Virus record (IMG/VR): IMGVR_UViG_3300014167_000007
Span: 1 to 33,886 of that record
Origin: a virus
Taxonomy: Duplodnaviria > Caudoviricetes
Strand: one strand, 5' to 3'
Length of the DNA stretch: 33,886 nt
This document shows positions 9,094-29,267 of this stretch, one piece after another. Under the pieces are notes generated by a model that did no database searches, was not told where the DNA came from, and worked only from the letters and a program-made list of their open reading frames with translations. How positions within the stretch are numbered: position 1 is the stretch's first letter; every line of letters begins with the position of its first letter. Position numbers and translations under genes: made by a program.

Positions 9094-9434
9094 CAATAGA
9101 CTGGCAATCGGCATTCCGCGACGCGCATCTGACATCCTGGCCGCGCGCCGGTCTGCGCATTTCCCGAGTCAGTCCGGAACCCGGACAGGGCAGCCGGAAG
9201 ATTTACGACGCGGATAAGATGGAGATTCATGCGGCGGCCGAAAGGTTCGGCTACCAGATGACCGAAAAGACGCAGAGTCATGTTTCGTTCACGCATCCGA
9301 CACTTGCCGGAATGGCCGGATTGACTTGGCGACCAATTATGAATGACCGAGACGCCATGCCGCGAGCCCATGATTTTCGCCGCCGGGGACACGCTGCTTT
9401 TCCAGCGGCATCTCCGGGATTACCAACCATCTGA
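9090..9434 (+). CDS. Hypothetical protein (3' end overlaps next gene)
   Basis: ATGA-coupled start; 92-bp overlap lowers confidence. Confidence 0.35.
   Translation: MTIDWQSAFRDAHLTSWPRAGLRISRVSPEPGQGSRKIYDADKMEIHAAAERFGYQMTEKTQSHVSFTHPTLAGMAGLTWRPIMNDRDAMPRAHDFRRRGHAAFPAASPGLPTI
9321..9342 (+). promoter_or_regulatory. Late-promoter-like motif, copy 1
   Basis: TTGACTT-GGCGAC-CAATTA-TGA immediately before ATG 9343. Confidence 0.65.
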
Positions 9435-11664: not shown

Positions 11665-13545
11665 ATGCCAGTGCTGACACACAGAGCGGTTGAGATCGAC
11701 GGCGAAGTTGACATCGCGTCGGGCATCATCCGGCTTTCTTTCGTGTCCGAACTTCCCGTTCTGCGCACCGATTCCAAGGGCGCGAAATACTGGGAAGTGC
11801 TGTCCCATGACCCGGGCGATGCCAATCTGGGCCGGATAAACCGGGACGGCATGCTGCTGGCCAATCACGATGAAAAACAGGAGATCGGCGAAGTGGTCAA
11901 GGGTAGCGTCCAAGTGGAGGCCGACAAGAAAACGCGAGCCTCGATCAAGATCACCGACCCGGCCTGGAAGGAGCGCATAGCACGGGGGGAACGGCCCGGT
12001 GTAAGCGTCGGGGCGATGATTCTATCGACGCTGTCAGAAGCTCCGGGCCCGGACGGAATCCCGGTCAAACGCTTTGCCTGGAGTCCATACGAGATTTCGC
12101 TTTTGGACGGCAAGCCCGCGGATGACACGGTGGGGATATTTCGGTCTGCGGTTGACTTGACGACAAAAGTTGAAGACAGAAAAAATTTAACTCCGGAAAG
12201 AACAAAACGTATGCCTGAAACAACCACCACCACCGTTGACCCGGCGATCGAGCGGGGTTCCTATCTCGCCGCTGACCGCAAACGAATCGGCGACATCACC
12301 CGGATGGCCGACCTCTTTGAGGTGGATCATGGCAAGCGTTCCGGCGGAAAATTCGCCGCCACCATCCGTCAACTCGCGCAAACCGCCTCCGAAAAAGGTG
12401 ACACGGCGGACTCATTCCGGGCCAATTTCTGGGACGCCTACGCCAAATCGGTTGAGGCCGACAAGGTGACCGAGAAGGCGCTCGGGATCAAGCGCGGTGA
12501 GTATTCGCTGGGACGGGCCATCCGTTCCTGTGTGGAACGAAACAAGGCCATGCCGGAGGGATTCGAGTTGGAAATCCACCAGGAAATCTGCAAGCGCGAC
12601 CTCGGGGTCACGCCGGGCGGTTTCATGGTGCCCTTCTCCGAACCCGAGCAGGACATTCCCATTTCGCGGACCAAGCGCGACTCCCAAGCCACGGTTTTCA
12701 ACACCGGCGGCGCTTTGGTGCCCACCGAGCTTCTGCCCCCGATTGAGCTGCTCCGGAACCGGCTCATCTCGACGCAGGCGGGAATCCGGATGCTGGCCGG
12801 TTTGACTGGCGGCAACATCCTGATTCCGCGTCAGACCGCCCCGGCAACCGCCTATTCCGTGTCGGAAATCGCGACCCTGACCTCAAGCAATCTGCTCCTG
12901 GATCAAATCGCGATGGCTCCGCACCGGGCGGGCGCCACCACGAATTATTCAAAGCAGCTTCTCCTGCAAGGGCAGGGTCCGGTGGAAGCCTTGATTTACG
13001 ACGATGCCATGCAGGTGCTGGCCCTCTACATCGACTTGATGACCATCGCGGGCAGCGGGTCCAATGACCAGCCAATGGGCATTCTCCAGACGCCCGGCAT
13101 TGGTTCGGTTCTGTTTGGCGGAACGGCCACTTACTCGAACATCATCAACTTCGAGAACTTTCTCGACATCAATAACGCGGATTCGGACGCCTCCTGCTGG
13201 GTGGTTACTCCGGCCGTCAAGAACGCATGGAAGAAAATCGCCGTCGCGCTCACGGGCTCGACCGTCATCGGTGGAGTGCAGAACGCCCTGTGGGTTGGCA
13301 AAGGCCGGGACGGTGAAGTGGCCGGTTACCGGGCCATGTCCACCAACCAAATGCCGAACAACCTCGCGCTGTTTGGCGACTTCTCGTCCTGCATGATGGC
13401 TATGTGGGGCGGGTTTGACGTGGTGCTCGATCCCTACACCCTGGCCAAACAGGCCGAATACGTCCTGACGATGAACACCTGGTTCGACATCGCGCTGCGG
13501 CATCCGCAGAAATTTTGCGCCAGCGCTGACGCGGGCAACCAATAA
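11665..13545 (+). CDS. Prohead protease - HK97-fold major capsid protein fusion
   Basis: N-terminal 'LLANHDEKQEIG' and 'PYEISLL..KPADDTVG..R' protease motifs; C-terminal 'GGALVPTE', 'IPRQT', 'GSGSNDQPMGI', 'FGDFS', 'DIALRHPQKF' capsid motifs. Confidence 0.92.
   Translation: MPVLTHRAVEIDGEVDIASGIIRLSFVSELPVLRTDSKGAKYWEVLSHDPGDANLGRINRDGMLLANHDEKQEIGEVVKGSVQVEADKKTRASIKITDPAWKERIARGERPGVSVGAMILSTLSEAPGPDGIPVKRFAWSPYEISLLDGKPADDTVGIFRSAVDLTTKVEDRKNLTPERTKRMPETTTTTVDPAIERGSYLAADRKRIGDITRMADLFEVDHGKRSGGKFAATIRQLAQTASEKGDTADSFRANFWDAYAKSVEADKVTEKALGIKRGEYSLGRAIRSCVERNKAMPEGFELEIHQEICKRDLGVTPGGFMVPFSEPEQDIPISRTKRDSQATVFNTGGALVPTELLPPIELLRNRLISTQAGIRMLAGLTGGNILIPRQTAPATAYSVSEIATLTSSNLLLDQIAMAPHRAGATTNYSKQLLLQGQGPVEALIYDDAMQVLALYIDLMTIAGSGSNDQPMGILQTPGIGSVLFGGTATYSNIINFENFLDINNADSDASCWVVTPAVKNAWKKIAVALTGSTVIGGVQNALWVGKGRDGEVAGYRAMSTNQMPNNLALFGDFSSCMMAMWGGFDVVLDPYTLAKQAEYVLTMNTWFDIALRHPQKFCASADAGNQ
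12152..12173 (+). promoter_or_regulatory. Late-promoter-like motif, copy 3, inside the fusion gene
   Basis: TTGACTT-GACGAC-AAAAGT-TGA, upstream of A-rich leader and in-frame ATG 12211. Confidence 0.55.
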
Positions 13546-13574: not shown

Positions 13575-14189
13575 ATGTTCAAGAAACTCACTCTTATCGG
13601 CGCGCTGCTCACGGCCTGCCTGCCCGGCGCGTTCGCGCAGTCCGGGTTCGACTATTACCAGGTTCCGCGAACCATTGTCATCACCGCGGCAACCAAGTTC
13701 ACCGGCTCGACGGTCTGGTCGAACAACCCCGTCGATTTGCATGGCTCGGTCGGCATAGCCAAGGTGGACATCGCCGTTTACACCAACGGCGCGGCCGGGA
13801 AGCTGGACATCAGCGGTTACACCAGCCCGGACCTGACTAACTGGACACTGGTGGGAAGCTGCTCGGTGGTCTCCAACACGACCAGCTTTAATTACACCAA
13901 CTCAACCTACATTTCGGCAGGCAACACCAATCCGATTCTGGCGACCAACATCCTGGCTTATCCGTTCCTGGCCACGACTCCGGTGGCCTCATCCGCCGGG
14001 TTTGCGACCTTATATCCGTTCCCTTATCCGTTCACCAACAGTTTCGTCATTGACGGATCGAAGGGCGGCACATTCGAGTTTGGATTCAACGCGCAGGACA
14101 TTAACCGATACTTCAGCCTGCAATACGCCGGGGCCTCCACCGGCACCAATTTTGTCGCCGCGTTCATCACCATCCGAAAACAGCAATAA
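13575..14189 (+). CDS. Signal-peptide-bearing beta-rich protein in capsid decoration/cement position
   Basis: MFKKLTLIGALLTACLPGAFA|Q; 'SPDLTNWT...RYFSLQY' resembles jelly-roll cement proteins. Confidence 0.7.
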   Translation: MFKKLTLIGALLTACLPGAFAQSGFDYYQVPRTIVITAATKFTGSTVWSNNPVDLHGSVGIAKVDIAVYTNGAAGKLDISGYTSPDLTNWTLVGSCSVVSNTTSFNYTNSTYISAGNTNPILATNILAYPFLATTPVASSAGFATLYPFPYPFTNSFVIDGSKGGTFEFGFNAQDINRYFSLQYAGASTGTNFVAAFITIRKQQ

Positions 14190-17026: not shown

Positions 17027-17608
17027 ATGAATGCACTCGCGTTTGCCGACGCGGCGCGGCCTACGCGGTGCGTTATTCTCCGGCTCCCGATGATGGACTA
17101 CTCCATCGGCCACGAGCTTTTGCTTCTGCACGAGCGCAACGCCTTGATCGTCCCGGACGATTCAGCCACGGATGAGACCTATCGTTTTGCCATCCTGCGG
17201 GCCGTGATGATCTGCTCGCGGTCATGGGAGGAAAATCAGCGTCCGATGCGCTGGCGCCGGGTCTGGAGCTGGCTGGCGCGGCGCTGTGACCTGGCCGCGG
17301 CAATCCAGGCATTCCGGGAATATCGACTGGCGGGCGTGTCCATGCCGGAAGTGAAGCCGATTCCGGGCGAGAAAGGCCGGGCGCTTGGCGGACCTCACCT
17401 TGCCCGCGTGCTCGAATTCGCGATGCGTTTGCGTGGGCAGGAGGCTTTTGACATGCCGTTCGGACTGGCGCAGTGGCTCTACTATTGCGGCGCGGAATCG
17501 GAAGGGGCCTGCATGATGCTGAGTGACGAAGAGAGAGAGATGGAGTCCGCGAAGGATGCTTTGATTGCGGAAATCCGCAAGGAGAAGGAGGCAAAATGGC
17601 CGGCTTGA
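17027..17608 (+). CDS. Tail assembly chaperone (probable)
   Basis: Between tube and tape measure; C-terminal 'AFDMPFGLA' like TAC proteins. Confidence 0.6.
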   Translation: MNALAFADAARPTRCVILRLPMMDYSIGHELLLLHERNALIVPDDSATDETYRFAILRAVMICSRSWEENQRPMRWRRVWSWLARRCDLAAAIQAFREYRLAGVSMPEVKPIPGEKGRALGGPHLARVLEFAMRLRGQEAFDMPFGLAQWLYYCGAESEGACMMLSDEEREMESAKDALIAEIRKEKEAKWPA

Positions 17609-19203
17609 TGGCCATCATCGGGGCGAACGCGGATCCCATGCGCCGGGAATTCAAGGAGGTTGAGCGCATGGCAATGCGGACGGGAAGAGCCATCCAGACA
17701 AGCATGGGAGGTTCACCTCTTGGGCATGGCGCCCGCGGCGGTGTGATTGGTGAAACACTCGTTCTGTTTCGTGAACTGGGACGTGGAAATTTTGCGAGAA
17801 TTCCCGGATCATTGACCATCCTCATTCAGCGGCTTGGCATTCTAAAATACGTGTTCAAGGACACCGCCGTCGCCGCAAATGCTCTAGCGACCGCACAGGA
17901 AGCGCAGGCGGCCAAAGCCATGCTGGCAGCGGCTGCGGCGAAAGAGGTTGTTCGCCGGAATGAGGCTAACGCGGCGACGATGCTTCGATTGAAGGAATCG
18001 GAGATTGCCGTGATGGCGGCCGACCGGGCGAAAGCGGCATCAGCGCTCCAAGTAGCTGAAGCTGAAAGAGTGCAGGCCGTGGCGGCAAGGCAGGCCGCCG
18101 TGGCCACTCAAGAACTTGGCGTCGCCTCGCGCTTTTCACTTGGTCCGATTGGCTGGATTATCATCGGAGTCACCGCGCTGGCAACCGCTCTTTACTTCAC
18201 TTGGAAGCACATCAAAACCACCACTGAACAGGCTCGAACTCTCCGGGATATGCTCGACGTGGCGAACGTGAAATTCACGGATCAGGCGGAGATAATGAAG
18301 GACCATGCCATTGCTGCTCAGTCGAATGTGGACTGGCTTAACAAGCTGGCCGAAGCGCAGGAAGGAGTTGCCGATGCAACTGAAGATGCTTTGAAAGCGC
18401 AGCGTGAGCAGTTCAAATATCAGCGCGAACTGGCAGAACACAAAGGCGCATCCAAAAAGCAACTGGCTCAGATGGACATCGCTGAGGCTCAAAAAGAGTT
18501 AGACATTGTAAATGAGGCCAAGCTCAAAGCCCGCCGCCAGCTTGAGATTGACAAGTCCGAAGAGCAGAAGGCATTCGACGCGGCAAACAACGATCATCGT
18601 TCGGGGAGAATAAAAACCCTCAATGAGCGGAGTCATGGCATGGGCTCTGTGATTGATGACATTCAGAGACAGATGCGCGACGCCGGGACGATGCGGGTGA
18701 TTGATGAAGCTGCTTCGCGAATCTCCGCAACGGCGGGCGGTGGTCCAGTTTACAAATATCGCGCCGCCAATGCTGACGACAAGTTCACTGTGAAGGTTGA
18801 CGGCAAGGAAGTGCAGATGAGTTTGAATGAGGCTAAGGAGGCTTGGACCAATATGACCCGGCAGGCGGAGAAACTGGAGAAGGTGCAGAAGGAGCTTGCC
18901 GACATTCTCGAATCAAAAAAGAAGCTGACCGAAAAGGAAAACGAGTCAGTATTAAAGCTTCAGCGGGAATCTCAGGAACTCGCCTCAGACCTGGCACTGA
19001 AAAAGAAATACCTGCCTCAGTTGTCGGACATCGGCTCATTCAAACATGGCCATGTAAACGCGCTACAACAAATCGGCGGCTATGCCGCACCGGCGGTGGA
19101 CATCCAGAGGGGGATGCTGCATCACCTGGCCAACATCGACCGCAACACCAGCCGGGGAACGGCAACGGCCGGCGCAACCCATGAAAGGGGAGTGAGGTTC
19201 TAA
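17596..19203 (+). CDS. Tape measure protein (short, 535 aa)
   Basis: Ala-rich helical/coiled coil, 'GPIGWIIIGVTALA' TM segment, position. Confidence 0.8.
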   Translation: MAGLMAIIGANADPMRREFKEVERMAMRTGRAIQTSMGGSPLGHGARGGVIGETLVLFRELGRGNFARIPGSLTILIQRLGILKYVFKDTAVAANALATAQEAQAAKAMLAAAAAKEVVRRNEANAATMLRLKESEIAVMAADRAKAASALQVAEAERVQAVAARQAAVATQELGVASRFSLGPIGWIIIGVTALATALYFTWKHIKTTTEQARTLRDMLDVANVKFTDQAEIMKDHAIAAQSNVDWLNKLAEAQEGVADATEDALKAQREQFKYQRELAEHKGASKKQLAQMDIAEAQKELDIVNEAKLKARRQLEIDKSEEQKAFDAANNDHRSGRIKTLNERSHGMGSVIDDIQRQMRDAGTMRVIDEAASRISATAGGGPVYKYRAANADDKFTVKVDGKEVQMSLNEAKEAWTNMTRQAEKLEKVQKELADILESKKKLTEKENESVLKLQRESQELASDLALKKKYLPQLSDIGSFKHGHVNALQQIGGYAAPAVDIQRGMLHHLANIDRNTSRGTATAGATHERGVRF

Positions 19204-20591: not shown

Positions 20592-21359
20592 ATGGCAATC
20601 GACGGCGCGGAAACGGGATGCTTTGGGGGATCTGGAATGAACCCGGCGACCAAGCCGGATAGCGGCGGCCTGTGGTTCATAGAAAGCCCCGGTCATGCCC
20701 GCGACGTAAACAACATGCCGGTGAATTCCTCATGGGATTTCTTCCTGAATGGCGGCACCGCATTCACCAGTTACAATGGGGCCGATCCTGCTTACAGCTA
20801 CGATTTGGGCGGATTCCTGCTTCCCCCATTCATCGCCACACCGCCCAATCCATCGACCGATCCTTTCAGGATGATCCTTGGACCTGGATGGTTCAACGTG
20901 CCTGCGAACCAGCTTTCATCGTCTGTTTACGCCGGTGACTACCCCGTGCCGAACGCGCGCTGGGGACTGGGCAGCAACGCGATCGTGCGCCTGATGCAGA
21001 TAATGTATCCGGGGCTTTATGAATGCCACATTCAAGTCCAATCGTTTTCCTCAATAAGCACCGTTCCTTACGTGACAACGAAGGCGGTGCCGGTCCCGTG
21101 TTCACTGCAAATCGTGAGCCCGGACGGCCGGCATATCGTGGATGTGACGCCCTCCGGACTGGACGTGAGCGGAAACGGACCCGACATTATTTTTCAGTTT
21201 GACTCCCGGGTCATTCTCGGTTCTGAAATAGGCTTTGGAACCGGGCTGGGTTTCTTCCCGCAAATCAACATGGGGCCGTTCTCAGACCCCGGCATCGGGG
21301 GAAGCACCACGGCGTTTTACAACGGAGCGGCCCGTTTCATCGGAGCAAAGATTGCCTGA
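20592..21359 (+). CDS. Tail tip region protein (Gly/Pro/aromatic-rich)
   Basis: ATG 1 nt after upstream stop. Confidence 0.65.
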   Translation: MAIDGAETGCFGGSGMNPATKPDSGGLWFIESPGHARDVNNMPVNSSWDFFLNGGTAFTSYNGADPAYSYDLGGFLLPPFIATPPNPSTDPFRMILGPGWFNVPANQLSSSVYAGDYPVPNARWGLGSNAIVRLMQIMYPGLYECHIQVQSFSSISTVPYVTTKAVPVPCSLQIVSPDGRHIVDVTPSGLDVSGNGPDIIFQFDSRVILGSEIGFGTGLGFFPQINMGPFSDPGIGGSTTAFYNGAARFIGAKIA

Positions 21360-21380
21360 TTGACTTCAACCCAATATTGA
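21360..21380 (+). promoter_or_regulatory. Late-promoter-like motif, copy 5
   Basis: TTGACTT-CAACC-CAATAT-TGA (one base shorter) in the 25-bp gap before ATG 21385. Confidence 0.6.
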
Positions 21381-21384
21381 GCTT

Positions 21385-22035
21385 ATGCCGCAACTAAATC
21401 TCTTCATCGACACCACCGTGCAAGGCGGCCAGCTTCTGGCGTCACAGACCAGTTCCAGCCCGATCAATGCGGCTTCCCTGCCATTCCAATACGGCGACAC
21501 CATCTCCCTGCAGGTTTACCTCCTGACGCGGATTGCCAATCCGAACGGGCCGGGGACCATCCTGAGCGGAATTTCGACGGTGGGCATCAGCCTTCAGGTT
21601 TACTTGTGCGACACGCTTTCCTCAACGGTTTACACGCAGCAGATCGTCTGGACAACCGACCCGAACAATTCCTATTTCATTGGGAACCTGGCATTGAACA
21701 CTACGGGATTGCTCGAGCTGCTCGGCGGCGGGGCATCCCCGATGCTGGCGAGCGCTCAGTGCCAGTTGAAGATCAATTACGTGCAGAACGGCCTGCCGAC
21801 TACGGTTTACAACCAGACGGTGACCGTGGGAGTGGGCAGCCCGAACGCGGCGCAGAGCGTTCCCGCGGGGCTCACGCCGCTCTCGGTGCAGGTTGCGCAA
21901 AGTCTGTTCCTGCCGAAACAGCCCGTCAACGGGCAGGGCATCATTCTAGCATCGAATGCCGGGAAGCAATTCATTCTGCAAATCGTGGACAACCCGGACG
22001 GCACGGCCTCCTTTATCGCGAGCGAAATCACATGA
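21385..22035 (+). CDS. BppU-like baseplate / fibre-attachment protein
   Basis: 'FQYGDTISLQVYL' resembles the BppU N-terminal domain; precedes fibre genes; no signal peptide. Confidence 0.55.
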   Translation: MPQLNLFIDTTVQGGQLLASQTSSSPINAASLPFQYGDTISLQVYLLTRIANPNGPGTILSGISTVGISLQVYLCDTLSSTVYTQQIVWTTDPNNSYFIGNLALNTTGLLELLGGGASPMLASAQCQLKINYVQNGLPTTVYNQTVTVGVGSPNAAQSVPAGLTPLSVQVAQSLFLPKQPVNGQGIILASNAGKQFILQIVDNPDGTASFIASEIT

Positions 22036-23450
22036 TGAAAACCCTACTCTCCATCCTATTTTTGGCCCTGGTATGCCTCACGAGCGAAGCGCAGATCATC
22101 ACCGCAACCGTTACGGTCACCAATGTAGCAGGCATCACGAATGGTTCGACCATCGTGGTGAACGGCAACACGCGGCTGTTCACGAACAACGTCACCAGCC
22201 CGTCAACGCAGATCACCAACGCGGCCAGCATTGGGCAGGGAGCGACAAACATCTGGATTGCCTACGTGCTGAATGGCGCGCCGCAGATCAATGTTTTCCA
22301 GAGCGGCACAAACGCGATCATCTTCCAATCGTTCAACGGTTCGCCGAACGTCATCACCATCGGTGGCACGTTCGGGACAGTCACAACCACAACCTCGAAT
22401 CCGACAAACGGATGGGTGGTGCGCGTGCCCAAGACAGTGGAAGGGGCGAACCAGCGGACGAACGTGTCAAGCGCATTGGTTTCGTGGATCGATGATGGAA
22501 CATATGTCACCAACATCATTTCCCAGGGCTCGGTGGCGCTGTCGAATTATGTGAACACGGGCAACTCGCAGGTCATTTACGGCGCGAAGAATTTCACAGG
22601 CGGATTGAGCGGCACGGGCGGGACGCTGACGAATGCCAACTTCCTGAATCCGTCTCTGACCAATGGCTACAACTATGGCACGCCGTTCAGATCCCCGGGC
22701 AGCGGATTGTATTCCGAGCAATTCGGATCGAATGCGGTTGCGTCGGCTCAGGGTGCCACGGCGCTCGGGAATCATGCCACGGCAACCAATACCTACTCAC
22801 TGGCCGTCGGACAGACCGCAAACGCTCCGGGAAATTCCGCCACGGCCCTTGGCGCGTTCACGGCTGCCACCGGGGCGTCGTCAACGGCTCTCGGCGTGAA
22901 TGCTCAGGCTTCCCAAACAGATTCGATTGCCATCGGTGACTTGGCGATTTCTCAAAACTCCACTGCCGTCGCGCTTGGGGCCGGTGCGACCACAACGGCC
23001 AACAATCAGCTTCGTTTCGGGACCGGCTCGGAATTCGTCAGCATCCCCGGCGGCTTGCAAGTGGAAGGCAGCATCACCAACTCGCATTTCGTGGGAACGA
23101 ACACGCTGGCGGGTGACCTGTCATTCAGCCGGGCCAACAATTCGAGCTTGGCCAACGGAAACAACGCCGCGGTGAACGTCTCAACCAACCTCTATGTGAA
23201 GGTGTCCGGTCCAACCGGCTCCTTCGCGATCAATGGCATTGCGGGCGGCCGGGATGGCCGGCTCATCATCCTGCAAAACTCGACGGGTCAGACCATGACC
23301 ATCTCGAATGATTCCGGCAGTGACCCCACGGCGGCGAACCGGATTTACACCGGCACGGGCGCAGACATTTCGCTGGCTAACAATCCCGGCTGTTGCACGC
23401 TGATTTATGATGCTTCAGTCACCCATTGGATCATCGTCTCGACGCACTGA
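22032..23450 (+). CDS. Signal-peptide-bearing fibre/adhesin with YadA-head (Hep_Hag) repeats
   Basis: MMKTLLSILFLALVCLTSEA|Q; 14-aa repeats ATALG/SLAVG/ATALG/STALG/SIAIG/AVALG. Confidence 0.75.
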   Translation: MMKTLLSILFLALVCLTSEAQIITATVTVTNVAGITNGSTIVVNGNTRLFTNNVTSPSTQITNAASIGQGATNIWIAYVLNGAPQINVFQSGTNAIIFQSFNGSPNVITIGGTFGTVTTTTSNPTNGWVVRVPKTVEGANQRTNVSSALVSWIDDGTYVTNIISQGSVALSNYVNTGNSQVIYGAKNFTGGLSGTGGTLTNANFLNPSLTNGYNYGTPFRSPGSGLYSEQFGSNAVASAQGATALGNHATATNTYSLAVGQTANAPGNSATALGAFTAATGASSTALGVNAQASQTDSIAIGDLAISQNSTAVALGAGATTTANNQLRFGTGSEFVSIPGGLQVEGSITNSHFVGTNTLAGDLSFSRANNSSLANGNNAAVNVSTNLYVKVSGPTGSFAINGIAGGRDGRLIILQNSTGQTMTISNDSGSDPTAANRIYTGTGADISLANNPGCCTLIYDASVTHWIIVSTH

Positions 23451-23455
23451 CGCCC

Positions 23456-26251
23456 ATGAAAACCTACCTAAAATCCCCGCTCCTTCTTGGTCTTGCATTG
23501 CTGCTCTGCGCCGTTCCCTCAATGGCGCAGAGCGGCGTCAATGTCACCTACAATTTCACGGACTTCACCAGCGCTCCGCAGGCCATCAATCGGATCATCC
23601 TGACGCCGTTGCAGCCGTTCGCGGACTACAATGGAGCGATCCTGACTGCGGTTCCGATCACCGGCGTCACGGGGACAAACGGGAGCTATACCTATTCCAA
23701 CGTCATTCCGGGCTACACCTACCGGGTCGAACTGGACTCGGCTTACGCGGTGACCATCCGGACAAACGGGCTGCCATCCGGTCTGTCGAATACGAATGTG
23801 AATGCTCGGGATTTTCTGGGTGTGGCCGTTACGCCGCAAATCTTCGCCTATCTCTACTCGACAAATGGCGCACAACTGGCGGACATCACGAATGCGGTGA
23901 ATGCGCTCGCCGTGCTTCGGGTTAATGGCACGAGCACCGGACAGACTATTTACAACGGGTCGAGCAGCAATCAAGTCATCACCTTTGCGCAACTCGTGCC
24001 CACGAACGTCGTCCCGATTAGCGGCACGCTTTACATGACAAACGGGACGCACACGGTTACCGTGGTGGGAGGAAATTTCAACAGCGTCCGGCGCGGCTGG
24101 AACATTGGGTTTACGAACGGCATTCAGGATCAATACGTCGTGCTTGAAGTTGAGAACGCGACCAACCTGACTGTCTGGCCTGCAGTCTCGATAACTCATG
24201 GTGGTGATGCCACGGGCTTGTGGTATCCAAACGCCATCCAATTTAACGACATCACCCCGCGAGACGTGGGCGGCATCGGGAACGACGGAAGCTACTTCGT
24301 GCAGGGGCCGTCCGGCTCGACGAACAACTCGGGGAAGATATTCCTTGGAGGCGGCCAGCACACGATGATCCTGAGCAGCCAGCAGACCTTCGACGGCTAC
24401 CGTTTCCAAGTGCAGACGTTCAACGCGCAGTCGCCACTCGAAGTGGATGACCTCGCCGATGAGGATTCCTTGCGCGTGCTGAGCAACAGCGTCGTCAGCA
24501 TCAAACACGGGATCACCAACAAGGACGGCGGCGGGACGCTGACGCTTTACGGCCCCGTAGCCGCACCGCAGACGCTGACGGTTACCGGTTTATTGACGGC
24601 CAACGGCGGCCAGCTTCTTGGCACCGGACAGGCCATTCAATGGCTGGGCTCTGGAACCATCCTCAACCTGAACGGCGATTCCTCCCTCTACAACCCCACG
24701 GGCAGCGATCCCCTGAGCGGCTTCTGGAATTGGAACACCACGACCACCAACCAGGCCACGACCGCGCGTCTGTGGGACTTGGCGAACTTGCAGGCGACCG
24801 ATACGGCCGCCGTGCGAAATGCCACGAATACCACCGGCGTCATCACTGCCAATGGCTACCAGTTCCCCACGAACCTCTGGAGTGGACGCCTTTTCCCAAT
24901 TGGCACGAATTATCAAATCGTCACCTCGAGCAACCTGCTATTCACGGGCGTTGCCAACGTGCCGGCCGGAACGGCGGCGGCTTCCGGGGAGCTGATTGCG
25001 CTGGTGACCGGAGGCAACATCACCGTCACGAATCCGCTGAGCTGGTATTGCAACGATGGTTACACCAACCGCACGGGAACGAACGGCAACCTGCTCGTGA
25101 TGGCGATGGAAGTCGTCCCGGGTGTCTCGACGAATTTCATTTTCACGCAGCACGCGGCGACCGGGCAGGGCATGGGTCAGGGCTCGGGCGGTGGTGTTGG
25201 CGGCGGCGTGACTCCCACCTTCAACGTCAATCAATTCAGCAGCGGCAGCGGAGCCGACGGCACCAACATCGTCTCGAATGTCCTCCTGACGAACGTCAAC
25301 GCACATACGTTCTTCACGCAGACCAATGCCACGACCGGCAATCATTTCGATGTCACGCAGGGTGGCTTTGTGGCCACAAATGCGCAGACCGGACAAACCA
25401 TCCGCGGCACCAACGGCGTGCTGACCCTCGGAACCGGGACCTCGGCGACGATCACCGCCACGGGAAGCTCGGGTGACATTACCGCTTCAACGTTCACCGG
25501 CAGCGGAGCGAACCTCACCAGCCTGCCCGCGGGCAACCTTAGCGGATCAATTAACGATGGCCGACTGAGTGCCAACGTCGCACTTTACAACAGCACGGGC
25601 TATTTTTCCGCGCAGCAAAGTCTCACCAATCAGAACAACATCATTGCCGCCGCCAACATCACCAACTTCAACCTGAGCGCTTCATCCATTTCCGGTAGTG
25701 ACGCGAACAAGGCGGGAATTTCCTACAGTCTGGCTGGCGGTTTGAGCATTTCCGGAACGTCCCTGACCGCCGTCAACGTCACGAACAACATCCGGCATAC
25801 ACTGTTCAGTTCCGGGGCCATCGTTTCCAACAGTGGAACATCCGAAACCGCTTTCAGCACCAACACCATTCCCGCCGGAACGCTGGCCGCCAACGGCAAC
25901 GCAATCGACTACTGGATGGGGATTACGAACAATGGAACATCCGCCAAGACGTTCACCTATAACCTCTATTTCGGAACCACGAAGATAGCCTCGGCCACTC
26001 TCACCAGCCGGGCGACGGCAGAGCGCGGTGTGCTGCACGTCCAAGTGCAACGCACCGGAGCTTCGACCGAATACGGTTTTCTGGCGCTCAACATCGCCAC
26101 AGCCGGCGGCGCGAACCCGGATGAAACCATCGGCATTGGCAATGCGGCGGAGAACACTGCGAACGCCCTGGGCTTCTCAGTGACGTTTACATCCACCGGA
26201 TCGTCAGGCGACATCAACGGATGGTATGAGAAAGCGGAGTTTGTCCCGTGA
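23456..26251 (+). CDS. Large signal-peptide-bearing tail-fibre/adhesin-like protein (931 aa)
   Basis: MKTYLKSPLLLGLALLLCAVPSMA|Q; Thr/Asn/Gly-rich; 'FTGSGANLTSLPAGNLSG' fibre-shaft motif. Confidence 0.75.
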   Translation: MKTYLKSPLLLGLALLLCAVPSMAQSGVNVTYNFTDFTSAPQAINRIILTPLQPFADYNGAILTAVPITGVTGTNGSYTYSNVIPGYTYRVELDSAYAVTIRTNGLPSGLSNTNVNARDFLGVAVTPQIFAYLYSTNGAQLADITNAVNALAVLRVNGTSTGQTIYNGSSSNQVITFAQLVPTNVVPISGTLYMTNGTHTVTVVGGNFNSVRRGWNIGFTNGIQDQYVVLEVENATNLTVWPAVSITHGGDATGLWYPNAIQFNDITPRDVGGIGNDGSYFVQGPSGSTNNSGKIFLGGGQHTMILSSQQTFDGYRFQVQTFNAQSPLEVDDLADEDSLRVLSNSVVSIKHGITNKDGGGTLTLYGPVAAPQTLTVTGLLTANGGQLLGTGQAIQWLGSGTILNLNGDSSLYNPTGSDPLSGFWNWNTTTTNQATTARLWDLANLQATDTAAVRNATNTTGVITANGYQFPTNLWSGRLFPIGTNYQIVTSSNLLFTGVANVPAGTAAASGELIALVTGGNITVTNPLSWYCNDGYTNRTGTNGNLLVMAMEVVPGVSTNFIFTQHAATGQGMGQGSGGGVGGGVTPTFNVNQFSSGSGADGTNIVSNVLLTNVNAHTFFTQTNATTGNHFDVTQGGFVATNAQTGQTIRGTNGVLTLGTGTSATITATGSSGDITASTFTGSGANLTSLPAGNLSGSINDGRLSANVALYNSTGYFSAQQSLTNQNNIIAAANITNFNLSASSISGSDANKAGISYSLAGGLSISGTSLTAVNVTNNIRHTLFSSGAIVSNSGTSETAFSTNTIPAGTLAANGNAIDYWMGITNNGTSAKTFTYNLYFGTTKIASATLTSRATAERGVLHVQVQRTGASTEYGFLALNIATAGGANPDETIGIGNAAENTANALGFSVTFTSTGSSGDINGWYEKAEFVP

Positions 26252-27384
26252 TGCGCAAGACCTCACTCGCGCTTTTTATCCTGCTCGGATTGGCCGCTCT
26301 ATGCTGCTTCGGTCAGGGCCTGGCGCACTCGCCCGCGTACCGCGCCGCGGCAGTCCCCATCACAACCGGCGGAAGCGGCAATATCTCGGTCAACGTGGAC
26401 TTCGCGGAGACTTGGCAAGGGGGCACCAATGGCAACGTCGGTGTGGAAATCGACGCGGTTACGAATGCGCTCTCATGGCGAAGCTCCTGGAGGCCGTGGA
26501 CATGGACAGGGTTGAACAGCCTGAGCGGCGGCAGTCAGACGAATCTCAACACTGCAAATACCATGCGGTTCGCGTTCACCAACGACAGCGTGCCGCCGTC
26601 GCCTTACATCACTTGGAATGTCACCGGGACGAATTTCGGAGGCGGCGCACTTGGTTACGTGCTGCGCTACAACAGCCGGACCAATGGAGTTCCGGGCATG
26701 AACCCGAGTGACACTTGGGAAGTCATCGACGGCAACCCGCCGTATTTCCCAAGTAACTCCGTGACATTCTGCAAGTTCATGACGACAGTGGACAACAGCG
26801 CCGGGGATGGAAGCTCACGCGACATCTATGTCAGCGTTTCGACCGTGGGCAGCCAGTCTTGGAGCATAAATCTTGCGCGCGGGACATCCGGAACAACTGA
26901 GTATTTTCGAATCGAGGTCGGGACAAACGGGACGGTAAACCTGCCGATACTGACGAATCGCTGGTATCTGGCCGCCGTCCTCTCCACCAATTATGTCGCC
27001 GCTGGATTCCCAAGCAACGTGGCCTATCTTTACGACATCGCCAGCAATTATGCGGTGGTGGGAGTCGTGGGAACGAATGCGGGGGTGATTGCGGCGCTCA
27101 CCGGCTACAGTCACCAGCGCTGGGGCCAGAGCGGGCACGCGCCAAGCTCGAACGTGCAGGCGAAGGCTTACGATTACTTTGGGGACTGGGCCATCCAGAT
27201 CACCAACATTGTCTGGCCTCCGGTGGTGTCCGCCGAAGGCTACTTGGACAGCCAAGGTTTCGTCCACGCGTGGGAGCCGTTGCCGTTTGCGAATCAGCAG
27301 CAGGCAGAGGCTGGCGATCCTGAGCCTGCCGACAAGCGAGAATGGCTGCCGGGTGAAACGGTGTTCATTAGAGCATTGAAATGA
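26251..27384 (+). CDS. Signal-peptide-bearing beta-sandwich (lectin/LamG-like) protein
   Basis: MRKTSLALFILLGLAALCCFG|Q; 'ILTNRWYLAAV' resembles the LamG W-Y/H strand. Confidence 0.65.
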   Translation: MRKTSLALFILLGLAALCCFGQGLAHSPAYRAAAVPITTGGSGNISVNVDFAETWQGGTNGNVGVEIDAVTNALSWRSSWRPWTWTGLNSLSGGSQTNLNTANTMRFAFTNDSVPPSPYITWNVTGTNFGGGALGYVLRYNSRTNGVPGMNPSDTWEVIDGNPPYFPSNSVTFCKFMTTVDNSAGDGSSRDIYVSVSTVGSQSWSINLARGTSGTTEYFRIEVGTNGTVNLPILTNRWYLAAVLSTNYVAAGFPSNVAYLYDIASNYAVVGVVGTNAGVIAALTGYSHQRWGQSGHAPSSNVQAKAYDYFGDWAIQITNIVWPPVVSAEGYLDSQGFVHAWEPLPFANQQQAEAGDPEPADKREWLPGETVFIRALK

Positions 27385-27800
27385 CAAACCAATCAAGCGA
27401 AGGTTTCTATATGATAAAACAAGCGACAGCGTTGTTTGATGCAGTGACCGCCGGGCCGCTGTGGATCATCATCGCGGCCGTGGCCATCTGCCTTTCGCTT
27501 TTCCTGACCTGGCTCAGGTGGTTTCCGAATCAAGCCGTGGCACCGACTATCGTGGTCGTTTCGACGCTGCTTTACGGGCTGCTTGGGGATCCGAAAGTTT
27601 ACGGGCCGAACCAGCGCTATCCGGTCTTGATGCTGATGCTCACCGGATTTATTTTGGGAACGGCTGCCTGGGTGTCGCATGTGGCGGTGCTTGCCGCGGC
27701 GAGGCGCAAGCTGGCCGCCATCCTGCCGGGATTCGGGAACGGAGATTCTGAAAATAACCAACCAACGAAAGAAGACAAAAATGCAAACGACAAAACATGA
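27381..27800 (+). CDS. Holin-like membrane protein (three TM segments)
   Basis: Three hydrophobic helices and a charged tail; follows tail genes; start may be 27411. Confidence 0.55.
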   Translation: MTNQSSEGFYMIKQATALFDAVTAGPLWIIIAAVAICLSLFLTWLRWFPNQAVAPTIVVVSTLLYGLLGDPKVYGPNQRYPVLMLMLTGFILGTAAWVSHVAVLAAARRKLAAILPGFGNGDSENNQPTKEDKNANDKT

Positions 27801-28335
27801 CACTCGCAGCACTGACACGGCCTTTTCCAAGCTCGCCAAACGCGCGCCGAATTTGACCGGCTATAGCATCCTGGGGCTGATAAGTTTCAGCCTCCTGGCA
27901 CTCCTGATATTCATCGGCATTGCCATCCGTCGCGGCTGCCTCGTGGCCCTGCTCGGCATCGGGCTTTTACTCGGGCTGGCGGAAGCCCGGGCGCAAACTC
28001 CCGCAACCACGTCCACGAATCCCCCGGCGACCGCCCCGGCAACCTTCGTGGATTCGCTCAAGACCTACTTTGGGTCATTCGACACCAACTCGACCACGTT
28101 CAAGAAGGCGAACGAGATCGACGTGATGGTCAGCGCCGACACGCAATCCGGAGTCACGTCGGCCGGCCTGGGACTGTCATACAACCTCTGGTCATTCGTG
28201 AGCGTGGAAGAGGTGACGCGCAATGCGGGCATCGGCGGGACCATCTGCGGACAAATCCCCGGCTCCCGAATCCGCGTCCGCCGCTTCACACACGTAAAAT
28301 TTGCAAATTTGCATGCGGTCAACTCTCAACCATAA
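27781..28335 (+). CDS. Membrane/exported protein, possibly C-terminally truncated
   Basis: Two hydrophobic segments, ARA|Q site, Pro/Thr linker, amphipathic beta strands 'AGLGLSYNLW'. Confidence 0.55.
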   Translation: MQTTKHDTRSTDTAFSKLAKRAPNLTGYSILGLISFSLLALLIFIGIAIRRGCLVALLGIGLLLGLAEARAQTPATTSTNPPATAPATFVDSLKTYFGSFDTNSTTFKKANEIDVMVSADTQSGVTSAGLGLSYNLWSFVSVEEVTRNAGIGGTICGQIPGSRIRVRRFTHVKFANLHAVNSQP

Positions 28336-28354
28336 ACTCAAAACCAACTCCCCC

Positions 28355-28630
28355 ATGAAACAAATCCTCACTGTCCTTTCCCTCCTGGCCGCCGTCGTCC
28401 TGACCGGCTGCATCAGCGGCTGCTCGACCACCAATATATCCGAACTCACCAAAGCGCTGGCCAACGATCCCGCCACCGTCCAGGTGAACGTCAGCTCGAT
28501 CTACGGCACGCTGCGCTTCACGCGCGTCGGCGGCCAGTCTGTTGGCAGCAAAACCACCGTCGCGCCCGACGGGACCATCACGATGACCCCGGCCGAGGCC
28601 GCGCCCGTGGTGGCCCCGGCCGCGAAGTAA
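28355..28630 (+). CDS. Small lipoprotein (spanin-like position)
   Basis: MKQILTVLSLLAAVVLTG|C lipobox. Confidence 0.7.
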   Translation: MKQILTVLSLLAAVVLTGCISGCSTTNISELTKALANDPATVQVNVSSIYGTLRFTRVGGQSVGSKTTVAPDGTITMTPAEAAPVVAPAAK

Positions 28631-28661
28631 AAAACCTTTTTTAGCCACGGATGAAACCCGG

Positions 28662-29267
28662 ATGAACCGCGTTTTCATCTTCATCCACGGCATATTGTCA
28701 AACCCCGCCGACAGCAAGGTGTGGGACCACCGGGCGGTCTCGTGGGTGAACCGCGAGACGCCGTGGAAGGGCGACAACCTGCCGTACCGCTGCGGCGTCA
28801 TCGGCCGGGCGTTCGGGCAGGACCGGCGGATCGAGCACCTGGCGGCGCTGCTGACATACTATTCTGGTGATCAGGTTGTACTGGTCGGCCACAGCAACGG
28901 TTGCGACATCGCGGTCAAGGCGCTGAGCCAGTGCGGGGCCATCGTGTCAACCCTGCACCTGTTCAATGCGGCCACGTCACCGGACTGGCAGCACAACGGG
29001 ATGAACGACGCGATGAAGAGCGGGCGGCTTGGGCGCGCGGTGATTTACTGCGCCGGCCGGGACACGGCCCTGGCGATCGTGCATGACAACCCGCTGGCGC
29101 GCTGGCTGGGGTATGGGACGCTCGGCATTCACGGGCCGCGGAAAGTTTCAGCGCTGGTGAGTGGGCGCGTGTGCGCCGTGCGGGAGGGAGTGTGGCGGAG
29201 CTACGGGCATTCAACATGCTGGGCAGAATCGAACTTCGATGCGACCATGCGATTGATTGCCGCGTGA
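28662..29267 (+). CDS. Alpha/beta hydrolase (esterase/lipase-like)
   Basis: 'FIFIHG' oxyanion motif, 'VVLVGHSNG' nucleophile elbow, Asp in 'GRDTAL', C-terminal 'YGHS'. Confidence 0.85.
   Translation: MNRVFIFIHGILSNPADSKVWDHRAVSWVNRETPWKGDNLPYRCGVIGRAFGQDRRIEHLAALLTYYSGDQVVLVGHSNGCDIAVKALSQCGAIVSTLHLFNAATSPDWQHNGMNDAMKSGRLGRAVIYCAGRDTALAIVHDNPLARWLGYGTLGIHGPRKVSALVSGRVCAVREGVWRSYGHSTCWAESNFDATMRLIAA

Follow-up and report, generated by a model that had tools for sequence, protein, structure and literature searches.

Assembly of tailed-phage particles is generally assumed to end within the cytoplasm, and phage genes that encode leader-bearing proteins are usually filed as host cargo. What, then, is to be made of a tailed phage in which the tail-fibre position is occupied by proteins with signal-type leaders? 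The virus record IMGVR_UViG_3300014167_000007, which in its entirety (33,886 bases, with called genes almost all on the + strand) is the window analysed here, carries at this position three consecutive genes, 22032-23450, 23456-26251 and 26251-27384, whose products each begin with a predicted Sec-type leader. We consider it probable that these proteins are outer parts of the particle, that they mature in the periplasm, and that they join the particle at lysis. Genes are designated below by their first position in the window; L stands for a related locus and G for a bacterial genome.

Distribution of signal-type leaders

Leaders were scored with a custom rule (not SignalP) requiring a basic n-region, a 9-residue hydrophobic window and small residues at -3 and -1; the rule gives false positives, probably including 28662. 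As a preliminary description of this DNA had stated, the three fibre-slot genes are tightly packed open reading frames (ORFs), and all three products pass. The 472-residue protein of 22032 starts with the leader MMKTLLSILFLALVCLTSEA/Q (the slash marks the predicted cut), and its gene overlaps the stop codon of 21385. Gene 23456 starts 5 nt past the 22032 stop and encodes 931 residues behind a leader ending in LLCAVPSMA/Q, while 26251, which overlaps the 23456 stop, encodes 377 residues behind a leader ending in LAALCCFG/Q.

Counts were made over the window and 15 related loci; L061, a remnant, and the duplicate loci L006 and L073-L077 were excluded. Of the 46 genes in the 22032 slot and the two positions that follow it, 36 pass the rule; among upstream genes (up to eight per locus) only 2 of 121 pass, both of which also resemble true leaders. 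Core head, tail and stub genes of the window lack a leader, and so do the best 150 members of the 21385 family (1522 clusters), none of which passes. Homologues of 22032 number 209; among the 120 listed, 111 keep the leader (101 by the rule and 10 with a longer n-region), and several of the nine that fail are truncated or visibly leader-bearing. Small-residue cleavage sites are retained although the leader sequences drift. Export of the fibre-slot proteins, proposed in the preliminary description, is therefore strongly supported at the sequence level, since the leaders persist in form despite the drift in sequence, are restricted to the fibre and post-capsid slots, and coincide with the Thr-Asn signature described below. 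Cleavage would presumably be by signal peptidase I.

Could such leaders belong to virion parts without exporting them, either as uncleaved inner-membrane tethers or as segments skipped by internal starts, so that assembly is cytoplasmic as usual? All the virion-type evidence fits this arrangement, and codon 23 of 23456 is indeed an in-frame ATG, placed two residues ahead of the predicted cut. The Met at that position, however, is absent from two of the three homologues of 23456, and no in-frame ATG follows the leader within the first 80 codons of 22032, 26251 or the fourth gene described below, 13575. Moreover, cleavage sites are kept, and the Thr-Asn signature tracks secreted, not cytoplasmic, host proteins. 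Non-exporting leaders thus appear very improbable.

No inner transmembrane-like stretch or PEP-CTERM signal was seen in any of 43 exported family proteins of at least 200 aa, and the Pfam scan of the window proteins found no YadA anchor. The mature chains hold few cysteines (64 of the 120 listed 22032 homologues have none past residue 45), so that disulphide formation is not supported as the reason for export.

A fourth leader-bearing protein encoded behind the capsid gene

Directly after the capsid gene (11665-13545) lies a fourth late gene with a leader, 13575-14189 (+ strand, leader at about 13575-13637), which the preliminary description had missed. All 11 members of its family carry a leader, and five of its seven Thr-Asn pairs are invariant in the family. 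The protein is modelled as a single jelly roll (predicted local distance difference test score, pLDDT, 57.8) with a low-confidence insertion of about 55 aa. Its structural matches (VIA) are YomS (Z 10.9), XepA (Z 10.7) and a jelly-roll chain of the BPP-1 capsid, 3j4u_H (Z 9.0; root mean square deviation, rmsd, 3.2 over 108 residues), which the entry title indicates to be the cement. On the strength of this model and of the position of its gene, 13575 is predicted to be a capsid cement or decoration protein.

Exported genes occupy the post-capsid slot in L007, L011 and L060 as well; their hhalign probability with 13575, 93.6, is inflated by the aligned leaders. Searched against viral loci, the 13575 profile found no relative beyond a fragment of the same phage. 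The gene that takes the place of the major capsid gene in L060 (L060:470-1570; G002:C60:23847-24947) has a long hydrophobic, leader-like start and no Pfam match.

An excess of Thr-Asn pairs marks the leader-bearing proteins

Thr-Asn excess was measured by shuffling each of 28 window proteins. Exactly four of the 28 show it: 13575 (z 4.4), 22032 (z 3.8), 23456 (z 5.4) and 26251 (z 5.5). In 23456 the pair occurs 29 times against 12.4 expected, and in 26251 11 times against 2.5. Among phage proteins, the ratio of observed to expected pairs is 2.64 in 56 with leaders as opposed to 1.20 in 214 without. The same division is seen in a sample of the Verrucomicrobiae genome G001 (36 stretches, 720 kb of 5.9 Mb), where Thr-Asn is the most strongly enriched dipeptide in proteins with a leader (411 vs 213 expected, ratio 1.93, n=100) and about as frequent as expected in those of cytoplasmic type (112 vs 117, ratio 0.95, n=203). 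Secreted proteins of Bacteroidota have a ratio of 0.80. The match to host secreted proteins therefore ties the four phage proteins to the exported class independently of the leader rule. Host and phage agree also in three Thr-Asn-poor pairs (G243, G251 and G303). Within 22032, Asn residues that follow Thr are better conserved than the others (0.65, n=15, vs 0.38, n=36).

Several other members of the class have secreted-protein ratios of 0.68-0.97 as compared with 1.93 in G001 (L080-L099, L104-L119). The pattern points to a lineage-restricted envelope modification, with Thr-Asn presumably marking sites of glycosylation or something similar. Bacteroidota provide the analogy from which we would guess at a periplasmic O-linked modification at Thr-Asn. 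A modification motif reported for a planctomycete is different, namely G-T/S (PMC5088730).

Five relatives carry genes for glycosyltransferases (GT2, GT9) and/or an FkbM-type methyltransferase in or near the head-tail block, some of them matching below the cut-off (L002:1831-3168, L004:2164-3480, L008:201-3552, L010:650-1417 and L012:648-1232); the window has none. These genes suggest an additional, phage-encoded glycosylation of the virion in those relatives.

The conserved putative fibre 22032

The first exported gene of the module (22032..23450, + strand, leader 22032-22091) specifies a conserved putative fibre whose monomer model, built from 92 sequences, consists of three parts (pLDDT 88.5). 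The N-domain (residues 21-121) matches the sheath domain 8kee (Z 11.8, rmsd 1.7, 88 residues aligned), residues ~140-248 of T7-type nozzles (Z 8.2-9.3), T4 gp11 (Z 7.0) and also flagellin (Z 7.0). Residues 220-338 form a YadA head (3s6l, Z 21.8, rmsd 1.5 over 119 residues), in agreement with the YadA-head repeats noticed earlier, which are recognised by PF05658 (E 5e-9). YadA scores of the 22032 family are far below the NCBIfam cut-offs (23 bits vs 750). YadA heads are trimeric, and 22032 presumably trimerises. The C-domain (363-472) is modelled as a beta-sandwich with no C-terminal barrel anchor and resembles the end of an Acinetobacter tailspike (24qj, Z 9.3), CpaA (6o38, Z 9.0) and residues 79-178 of TSP4 (7rej, Z 7.5), with a fold also known from T4 gp9-10.

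Two more specific assignments were discarded. The N-domain is not a T7 "fibre dock", the matched stretch being the nozzle tip, which is described as gp11-like (PMC6702177). Nor is the C-domain the docking domain XD2: the matched residues 79-178 are XD1, described as a gp9-like domain with a glycan-binding-type fold that docks no trimers in TSP4 (PMC8825819). A docking role of the 22032 tip is therefore not implied by that match.

Domains of 22032 recur in other settings. The C-domain is found in 36 leaderless and 6 leader-bearing proteins of other viral contigs, and one 22032 homologue ends in a phage K1-lyase C-domain. In L062-L072 (Chitinophagaceae, Ignavibacteria, Kapaibacterium) clusters of secreted host proteins end in the 22032 C-domain, often behind a two-component system. 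In L011 (10378-13221) a cold-shock domain ORF (PF00313) lies in frame upstream of the leader-like stretch of the fibre gene, possibly as an inserted or overlapping small gene.

A leaderless stub and a probable split fibre

Immediately upstream of the fibre, gene 21385..22035 (+ strand) encodes a leaderless stub or adaptor of 216 aa, made of a beta-sandwich N-domain and a short C-terminal GxxIxLxSPDG element. Its earlier label, "BppU-like", finds weak backing in structure: the template modelling (TM) score to the BppU cluster is 0.44, under the bar of the tool used, and the Pfam search gave no PF10651 match. The family comprises 1522 clusters at 50% identity, and its best 150 members have a Thr-Asn ratio of 0.69. 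Its profile matches 33 of 401 Verrucomicrobiia-class genomes.

The sequence context of this domain was compared in 30 loci returned by the search and sorted by eye. In about 13 of them the 21385 domain heads a long leaderless ORF of 364 to >860 aa, with collagen repeats in three of the six such ORFs tested (one below the Pfam cut-off). In seven, a short stub is directly followed by a gene passing the leader rule; in a further four the next gene begins with a hydrophobic segment but does not satisfy the rule, and in three it is leaderless. Elsewhere, then, the domain serves as a fibre anchor; in the window the body of the fibre seems to have been detached and equipped with a leader. We infer that 21385 represents the proximal half of such a split fibre, with 22032 as its binding partner; 21385 is predicted to be the cytoplasmic docking point.

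In a tree of 39 stub-domain rows, split and one-piece forms (labelled by eye) are intermixed, giving six changes for the split form, of which the starred branches force only one. The window 21385 falls in a well-supported clade with the G002 prophage. Gene order, with the module in the tail region next to the adaptor, is kept in the window and most of 15 relatives, and the exported module stays within tail operons even where their layout differs. Thus its place in L011, L014 and L017 is behind the presumed tail-tube gene, not behind the tape measure (both placed by position). The stub neighbourhood is fixed in close relatives except L011 and L061. The latter, a prophage remnant in G001 without a stub, has a leader-bearing 22032 homologue beside a tape-measure-like gene (L061:10022-12783), which fits host-cargo retention or simple decay.

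Indirect support for the proposal that the fibre-slot proteins are virion parts comes from their folds, from the position of their genes, from a modular architecture of the fibre kind and from their separation from a leaderless stub.

Variable proteins 23456 and 26251

The second exported gene (23456..26251, + strand, leader 23456-23527) appears to specify a mosaic fibre or receptor-binding protein, with a conserved N-domain of ~100 aa and a variable body. Its three homologues align over just 15-22% of the protein, and the N-domain alignment holds 12 sequences. By sequence this is the constant-anchor, variable-body layout of receptor-binding proteins. The N-domain has a weak likeness to prealbumin and SdrD-B (Pfam E 0.013-0.02), and a search of PDB sequences with its profile returned nothing significant (best E 0.086). 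The string FTGSGANLTSL, which had been called a shaft motif by an earlier reader, is present at residue 680. Slot proteins of relatives contain pectate-lyase-like, LamG/Ig, GDSL or GH27 modules in 5 of the 27 scanned, most having no Pfam match, and the S74 chaperone domain was not found in Pfam scans of the window proteins or of these slot proteins.

The third gene (26251..27384, + strand, leader ~26251-26313) encodes a likely lectin-like (ConA/LamG) accessory protein, with Atlas neighbours at TM 0.4-0.56. A LamG-like element had been reported in it; this is weakly supported, the ConA/LamG similarity being at TM ~0.5 and the Atlas model at pLDDT 0.43.

With proteins of this kind it is natural to ask whether they are fixed to particles at all. 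They could accumulate in the periplasm and be set free when the cell lyses, to aid spread as soluble decoys, as masks of receptors or as helpers that degrade capsules. After cleavage they would be soluble and have no anchor, and in relatives some of the neighbouring genes encode entire enzymes of secreted type, such as the GH27 plus NPCBM protein encoded next to the module in L060. For distal variable genes such as 26251 the explanation may well hold. For the module as a whole we judge it decidedly unlikely, as it leaves unexplained the conserved stub (a fibre anchor elsewhere), the constant N-domain on 23456 and the cement fold of 13575.

A proposed route of assembly

Under the reading that we favour, head and tail would be built in the cytoplasm, the tail ending in the leaderless stub 21385. 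The proteins 22032, 23456 and 26251 and the cement 13575 would be exported to the periplasm, lose their leaders and accumulate in processed form, likely being modified there at Thr-Asn sites. When the inner membrane breaks at lysis, these parts would attach to the head and tail built in the cytoplasm. T4 fibres, P22 spikes and lambda gpD can all be added to finished particles in vitro. Attachment of the fibre would probably be via 21385 to 22032, likely through a conserved segment near residues 126-160, the only piece of the N-terminal part that relative L007 keeps; 23456 and 26251 would dock further out.

A different order of events would have intact particles cross the inner membrane, by extrusion or in a vesicle, and be finished in a spacious periplasm with no classical lysis. 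Consistent with this, no endolysin was recognised among the 36 window proteins scanned with Pfam and PHROG, and the module is followed by several genes for membrane proteins or lipoproteins. Three of these (27381, 27781 and 28355), however, fit holin- or spanin-like roles, an assignment made from hydrophobicity alone; no export portal is evident, and the contig may be incomplete. We regard such a crossing as the most remote of the explanations considered.

In its widest form, the proposal is that a large lineage of Verrucomicrobiia tailed phages builds its virion in two compartments, with all outer parts (cement, hub fibre and receptor binders) periplasmic and modified at Thr-Asn by an undescribed host system, so that the particle is dressed with host-type glycans and armed only at lysis. 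To this generalisation we would give somewhat less than an even chance.

Particle parts or surface cargo

Alternatively, the exported proteins might be exclusion factors or adhesins domesticated from fibre-like proteins, which an infected cell or a lysogen would display on its surface or secrete by way of host secretion systems; they would never be incorporated in the virion, adsorption being left to 20592 or another tip protein. Lambda lom and bor, which sit among late genes, speak for such cargo, as do the leaders, the Thr-Asn signature of the host secretome and the closeness of the 22032 YadA head to those of trimeric autotransporters (Z 21.8). Yet no anchor, barrel, lipobox-type or PEP-CTERM signal was found. 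The GC content of the fibre-slot genes (57-60%) is like that of the rest of the genome, and their position is conserved, with the exceptions of stub neighbourhood already mentioned. The module is tightly coupled to 21385, with no upstream-motif copy of its own and no convincing promoter or terminator (two promoter-like sites against 3.8 expected, one of them 9-of-12). Finally, an exported cement-fold gene right behind the capsid gene is hard to explain in this way. Altogether we find surface cargo unlikely.

The upstream motif, TTGACTT-N4-7-CAATNNTGA, occurs four times in the window (at 9321, 11642, 16481 and 21360) and in none of 100 shuffles. Its copies precede genes 9343, 11665, 16524 and 21385, and the last one (21360..21380, + strand) is likely a late promoter or regulator site. 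A late-promoter motif shared by the fibre genes had been proposed; the motif is real, but in this module it stands only before 21385, the three genes lying downstream. A looser form of it was not found in the loci of close relatives. Three of the four copies end a few bases before the start codon, where no Shine-Dalgarno sequence is seen, possibly indicating leaderless late transcripts.

Several observations weigh against incorporation of the exported proteins into the particle, or against parts of the scheme. Leader-bearing forms of the 22032 C-domain are found in 15 host-type genes of Bacteroidota and relatives, including host proteins of Chitinophagaceae and Ignavibacteria, and bacteria secrete phage-fibre-like proteins for their own use, for which the MAT fibres of Bdellovibrio, which have signal peptides, set a precedent (PMC10769870). 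The jelly roll is a common fold, and GOLD and protease jelly rolls score nearly as high with 13575 (Z 8.2-8.6) as does BPP-1 (9.0). Queries with 22032 and 21385 homologues gave no match among 50,697 phage records, and no cultured member was found.

A further point concerns the gene preceding the stub. The preliminary description saw no other receptor-binding gene, and this is doubtful: the leaderless gene 20592..21359 (+ strand), possibly a cytoplasmic receptor-binding or tip protein, occupies a hypervariable tail-tip slot. The 13 genes at this slot (window and 12 relatives) encode 135-966 aa and have no mutual blastp match at E 0.01; the 12 that were scanned have no Pfam match. By itself 20592 could suffice as a cytoplasmic receptor binder.

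The Thr-Asn signature, too, has its exceptions. It is lacking from the last 110 matched residues of the C-domain in the 22032 family (15 pairs vs 17.6 expected), and the match between host and phage is weak or reversed in G045, G060 and G290, all small samples. The N-x-S/T sequon is at expectation in the four exported proteins (z -0.3 to 0.9), and STT3 (PF02516) was found in none of three genomes, two of them possibly incomplete. N-glycosylation at N-x-S/T was rejected on these grounds, and for the same reasons the Thr-Asn excess could be structural.

Host, distribution and genome setting

The phage likely has a verrucomicrobial host. A prophage with a full-length 22032 relative (L060; G002:C60) runs on into apparent host genes on a contig of a Verrucomicrobiia metagenome-assembled genome, and L061, which also has a full-length relative, is a remnant in a Verrucomicrobiae chromosome. 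A third full-length relative (L059) is on a 35-kb contig binned as Terriglobia, which is either a possible misbin or a second host. In 401 Verrucomicrobiia-class genomes full-length 22032 occurs once, in the prophage, the other listed matches covering mainly the YadA repeats. Single-protein scans found no close relative of 21385 in viral contigs, none of 22032 in genome contigs, and for the capsid protein just a fragment of the same phage. Capsid relatives in cultured phages are all below 60% identity, 15 being listed at 28-30%.

Pfam and PHROG scans of 36 window proteins identified the terminase (6399 and 6973), a head-tail joining protein (9343), a lambda-type portal (9963) and RecT; the large terminase subunit, portal and HK97-fold capsid were matched by PF05876, PF05136 and PF05065 and by phrog_15, 21 and 617. 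The major capsid protein (11665..13545, + strand) is leaderless, protease-fused and HK97-type (PF05065, E 8.6e-23; phrog_617, E 3.5e-71) and has no Thr-Asn excess. Gene 17596..19203 (+ strand) is a weak match to tape-measure proteins (phrog_1686, E 8.1e-7), and 16524 is labelled tail tube by position only. No sheath was matched in the same scans. The genome is thus likely that of a siphophage-type, double-stranded DNA (dsDNA) head-tail phage, with a weakly matched tape measure and a tube placed by position.

The tail module is uninterrupted from the tape measure to the membrane-protein genes. Of the latter (region 27381-29267), 27381 is holin-like with multiple transmembrane stretches, 27781 has one such stretch followed by a second leader-like stretch (EARA/Q), 28355 is lipoprotein-like, and 28662, which has a relative in L005, contains an alpha/beta-hydrolase-like GHSNG motif. 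Sampled words of the window were recovered from two wetland metagenome runs at 1.00 and 0.91, the first of which may be its source. Pieces of the late region are present as contigs in RNA runs X4 and X6, which say nothing on the level or timing of transcription.

If the favoured reading is true, tailed-phage assembly gains a second compartment, virions can acquire envelope modifications, and the annotation of leader-bearing phage genes as host cargo would change. One design option would then be to exclude glycan-binding or glycan-cutting parts from the cytoplasm, or to leave particles unarmed until their release. The stub family is large (1522 clusters), though exported genes follow only some of its members. 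The Thr-Asn excess would point to an undescribed envelope modification in a soil and wetland group of Verrucomicrobiia and provide a sequence mark for phage proteins that pass the envelope.

Comparison with known systems

A search of the literature (titles and abstract openings) found no description of exported fibres or cement of a tailed phage, nor of the Thr-Asn motif. The nearest parallels are multi-part fibre and tailspike systems such as CBA120 TSP4, T4 gp9/gp10/gp11 and the lactococcal BppU type. These share with the window the place in the late operon, an adaptor with separate fibre genes and a constant N-domain with a variable body, and the end domains of 22032 have folds in common with TSP4 XD1, the T7 nozzle tip and T4 gp11. 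TSP4, T4 and BppU-type fibre proteins are, however, leaderless and assembled in the cytoplasm, whereas everything beyond the stub of the window has a leader. A similar relation holds for the jelly-roll cements (BPP-1 3j4u chain H and the 7-7-1, Carin1 and KHP40 capsids): 13575 is like them in gene place and in its predicted single jelly roll, and differs in its conserved leader, its ~55-aa insertion and its five invariant Thr-Asn pairs.

Inovirus pIII and pVIII are virion proteins with signal peptides routed through the envelope. These coat proteins stay membrane-anchored and coat extruded single-stranded DNA; the window, in contrast, represents a dsDNA head-tail phage, and no anchor is seen on its exported proteins. 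The Sec leader and YadA head are features that trimeric autotransporter adhesins (YadA, BoaA, EibD) have in common with 22032, which unlike them lacks a barrel anchor, has phage-type flanking domains and occurs at full length only in a phage context. Bdellovibrio MAT fibres are described as trimers that resemble phage fibres and are made with a signal peptide; their N-domain is conserved and their tips vary (PMC10769870). They share the leader and the N-domain/tip layout with the window proteins, as the Chitinophagaceae genes share the 22032 C-domain, but MAT and the Bacteroidota fibre-like genes are chromosomal, lie outside virion operons and show no Thr-Asn excess (ratio 0.80). As for morons, their hallmarks (own promoter and terminator, atypical composition, sporadic presence) are not those of the exported module.

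Judged from its genes, the module fits neither canonical fibres, which are leaderless, nor autotransporters, which have an anchor, nor morons, which are independent, and it would be categorically new if its products are virion parts. What is new is the combination of predicted exported fibres and cement in a genome of siphophage type, a relative integrated in a Verrucomicrobiia genome, the comparison of one-piece with split fibres, and the host secretome as a control.

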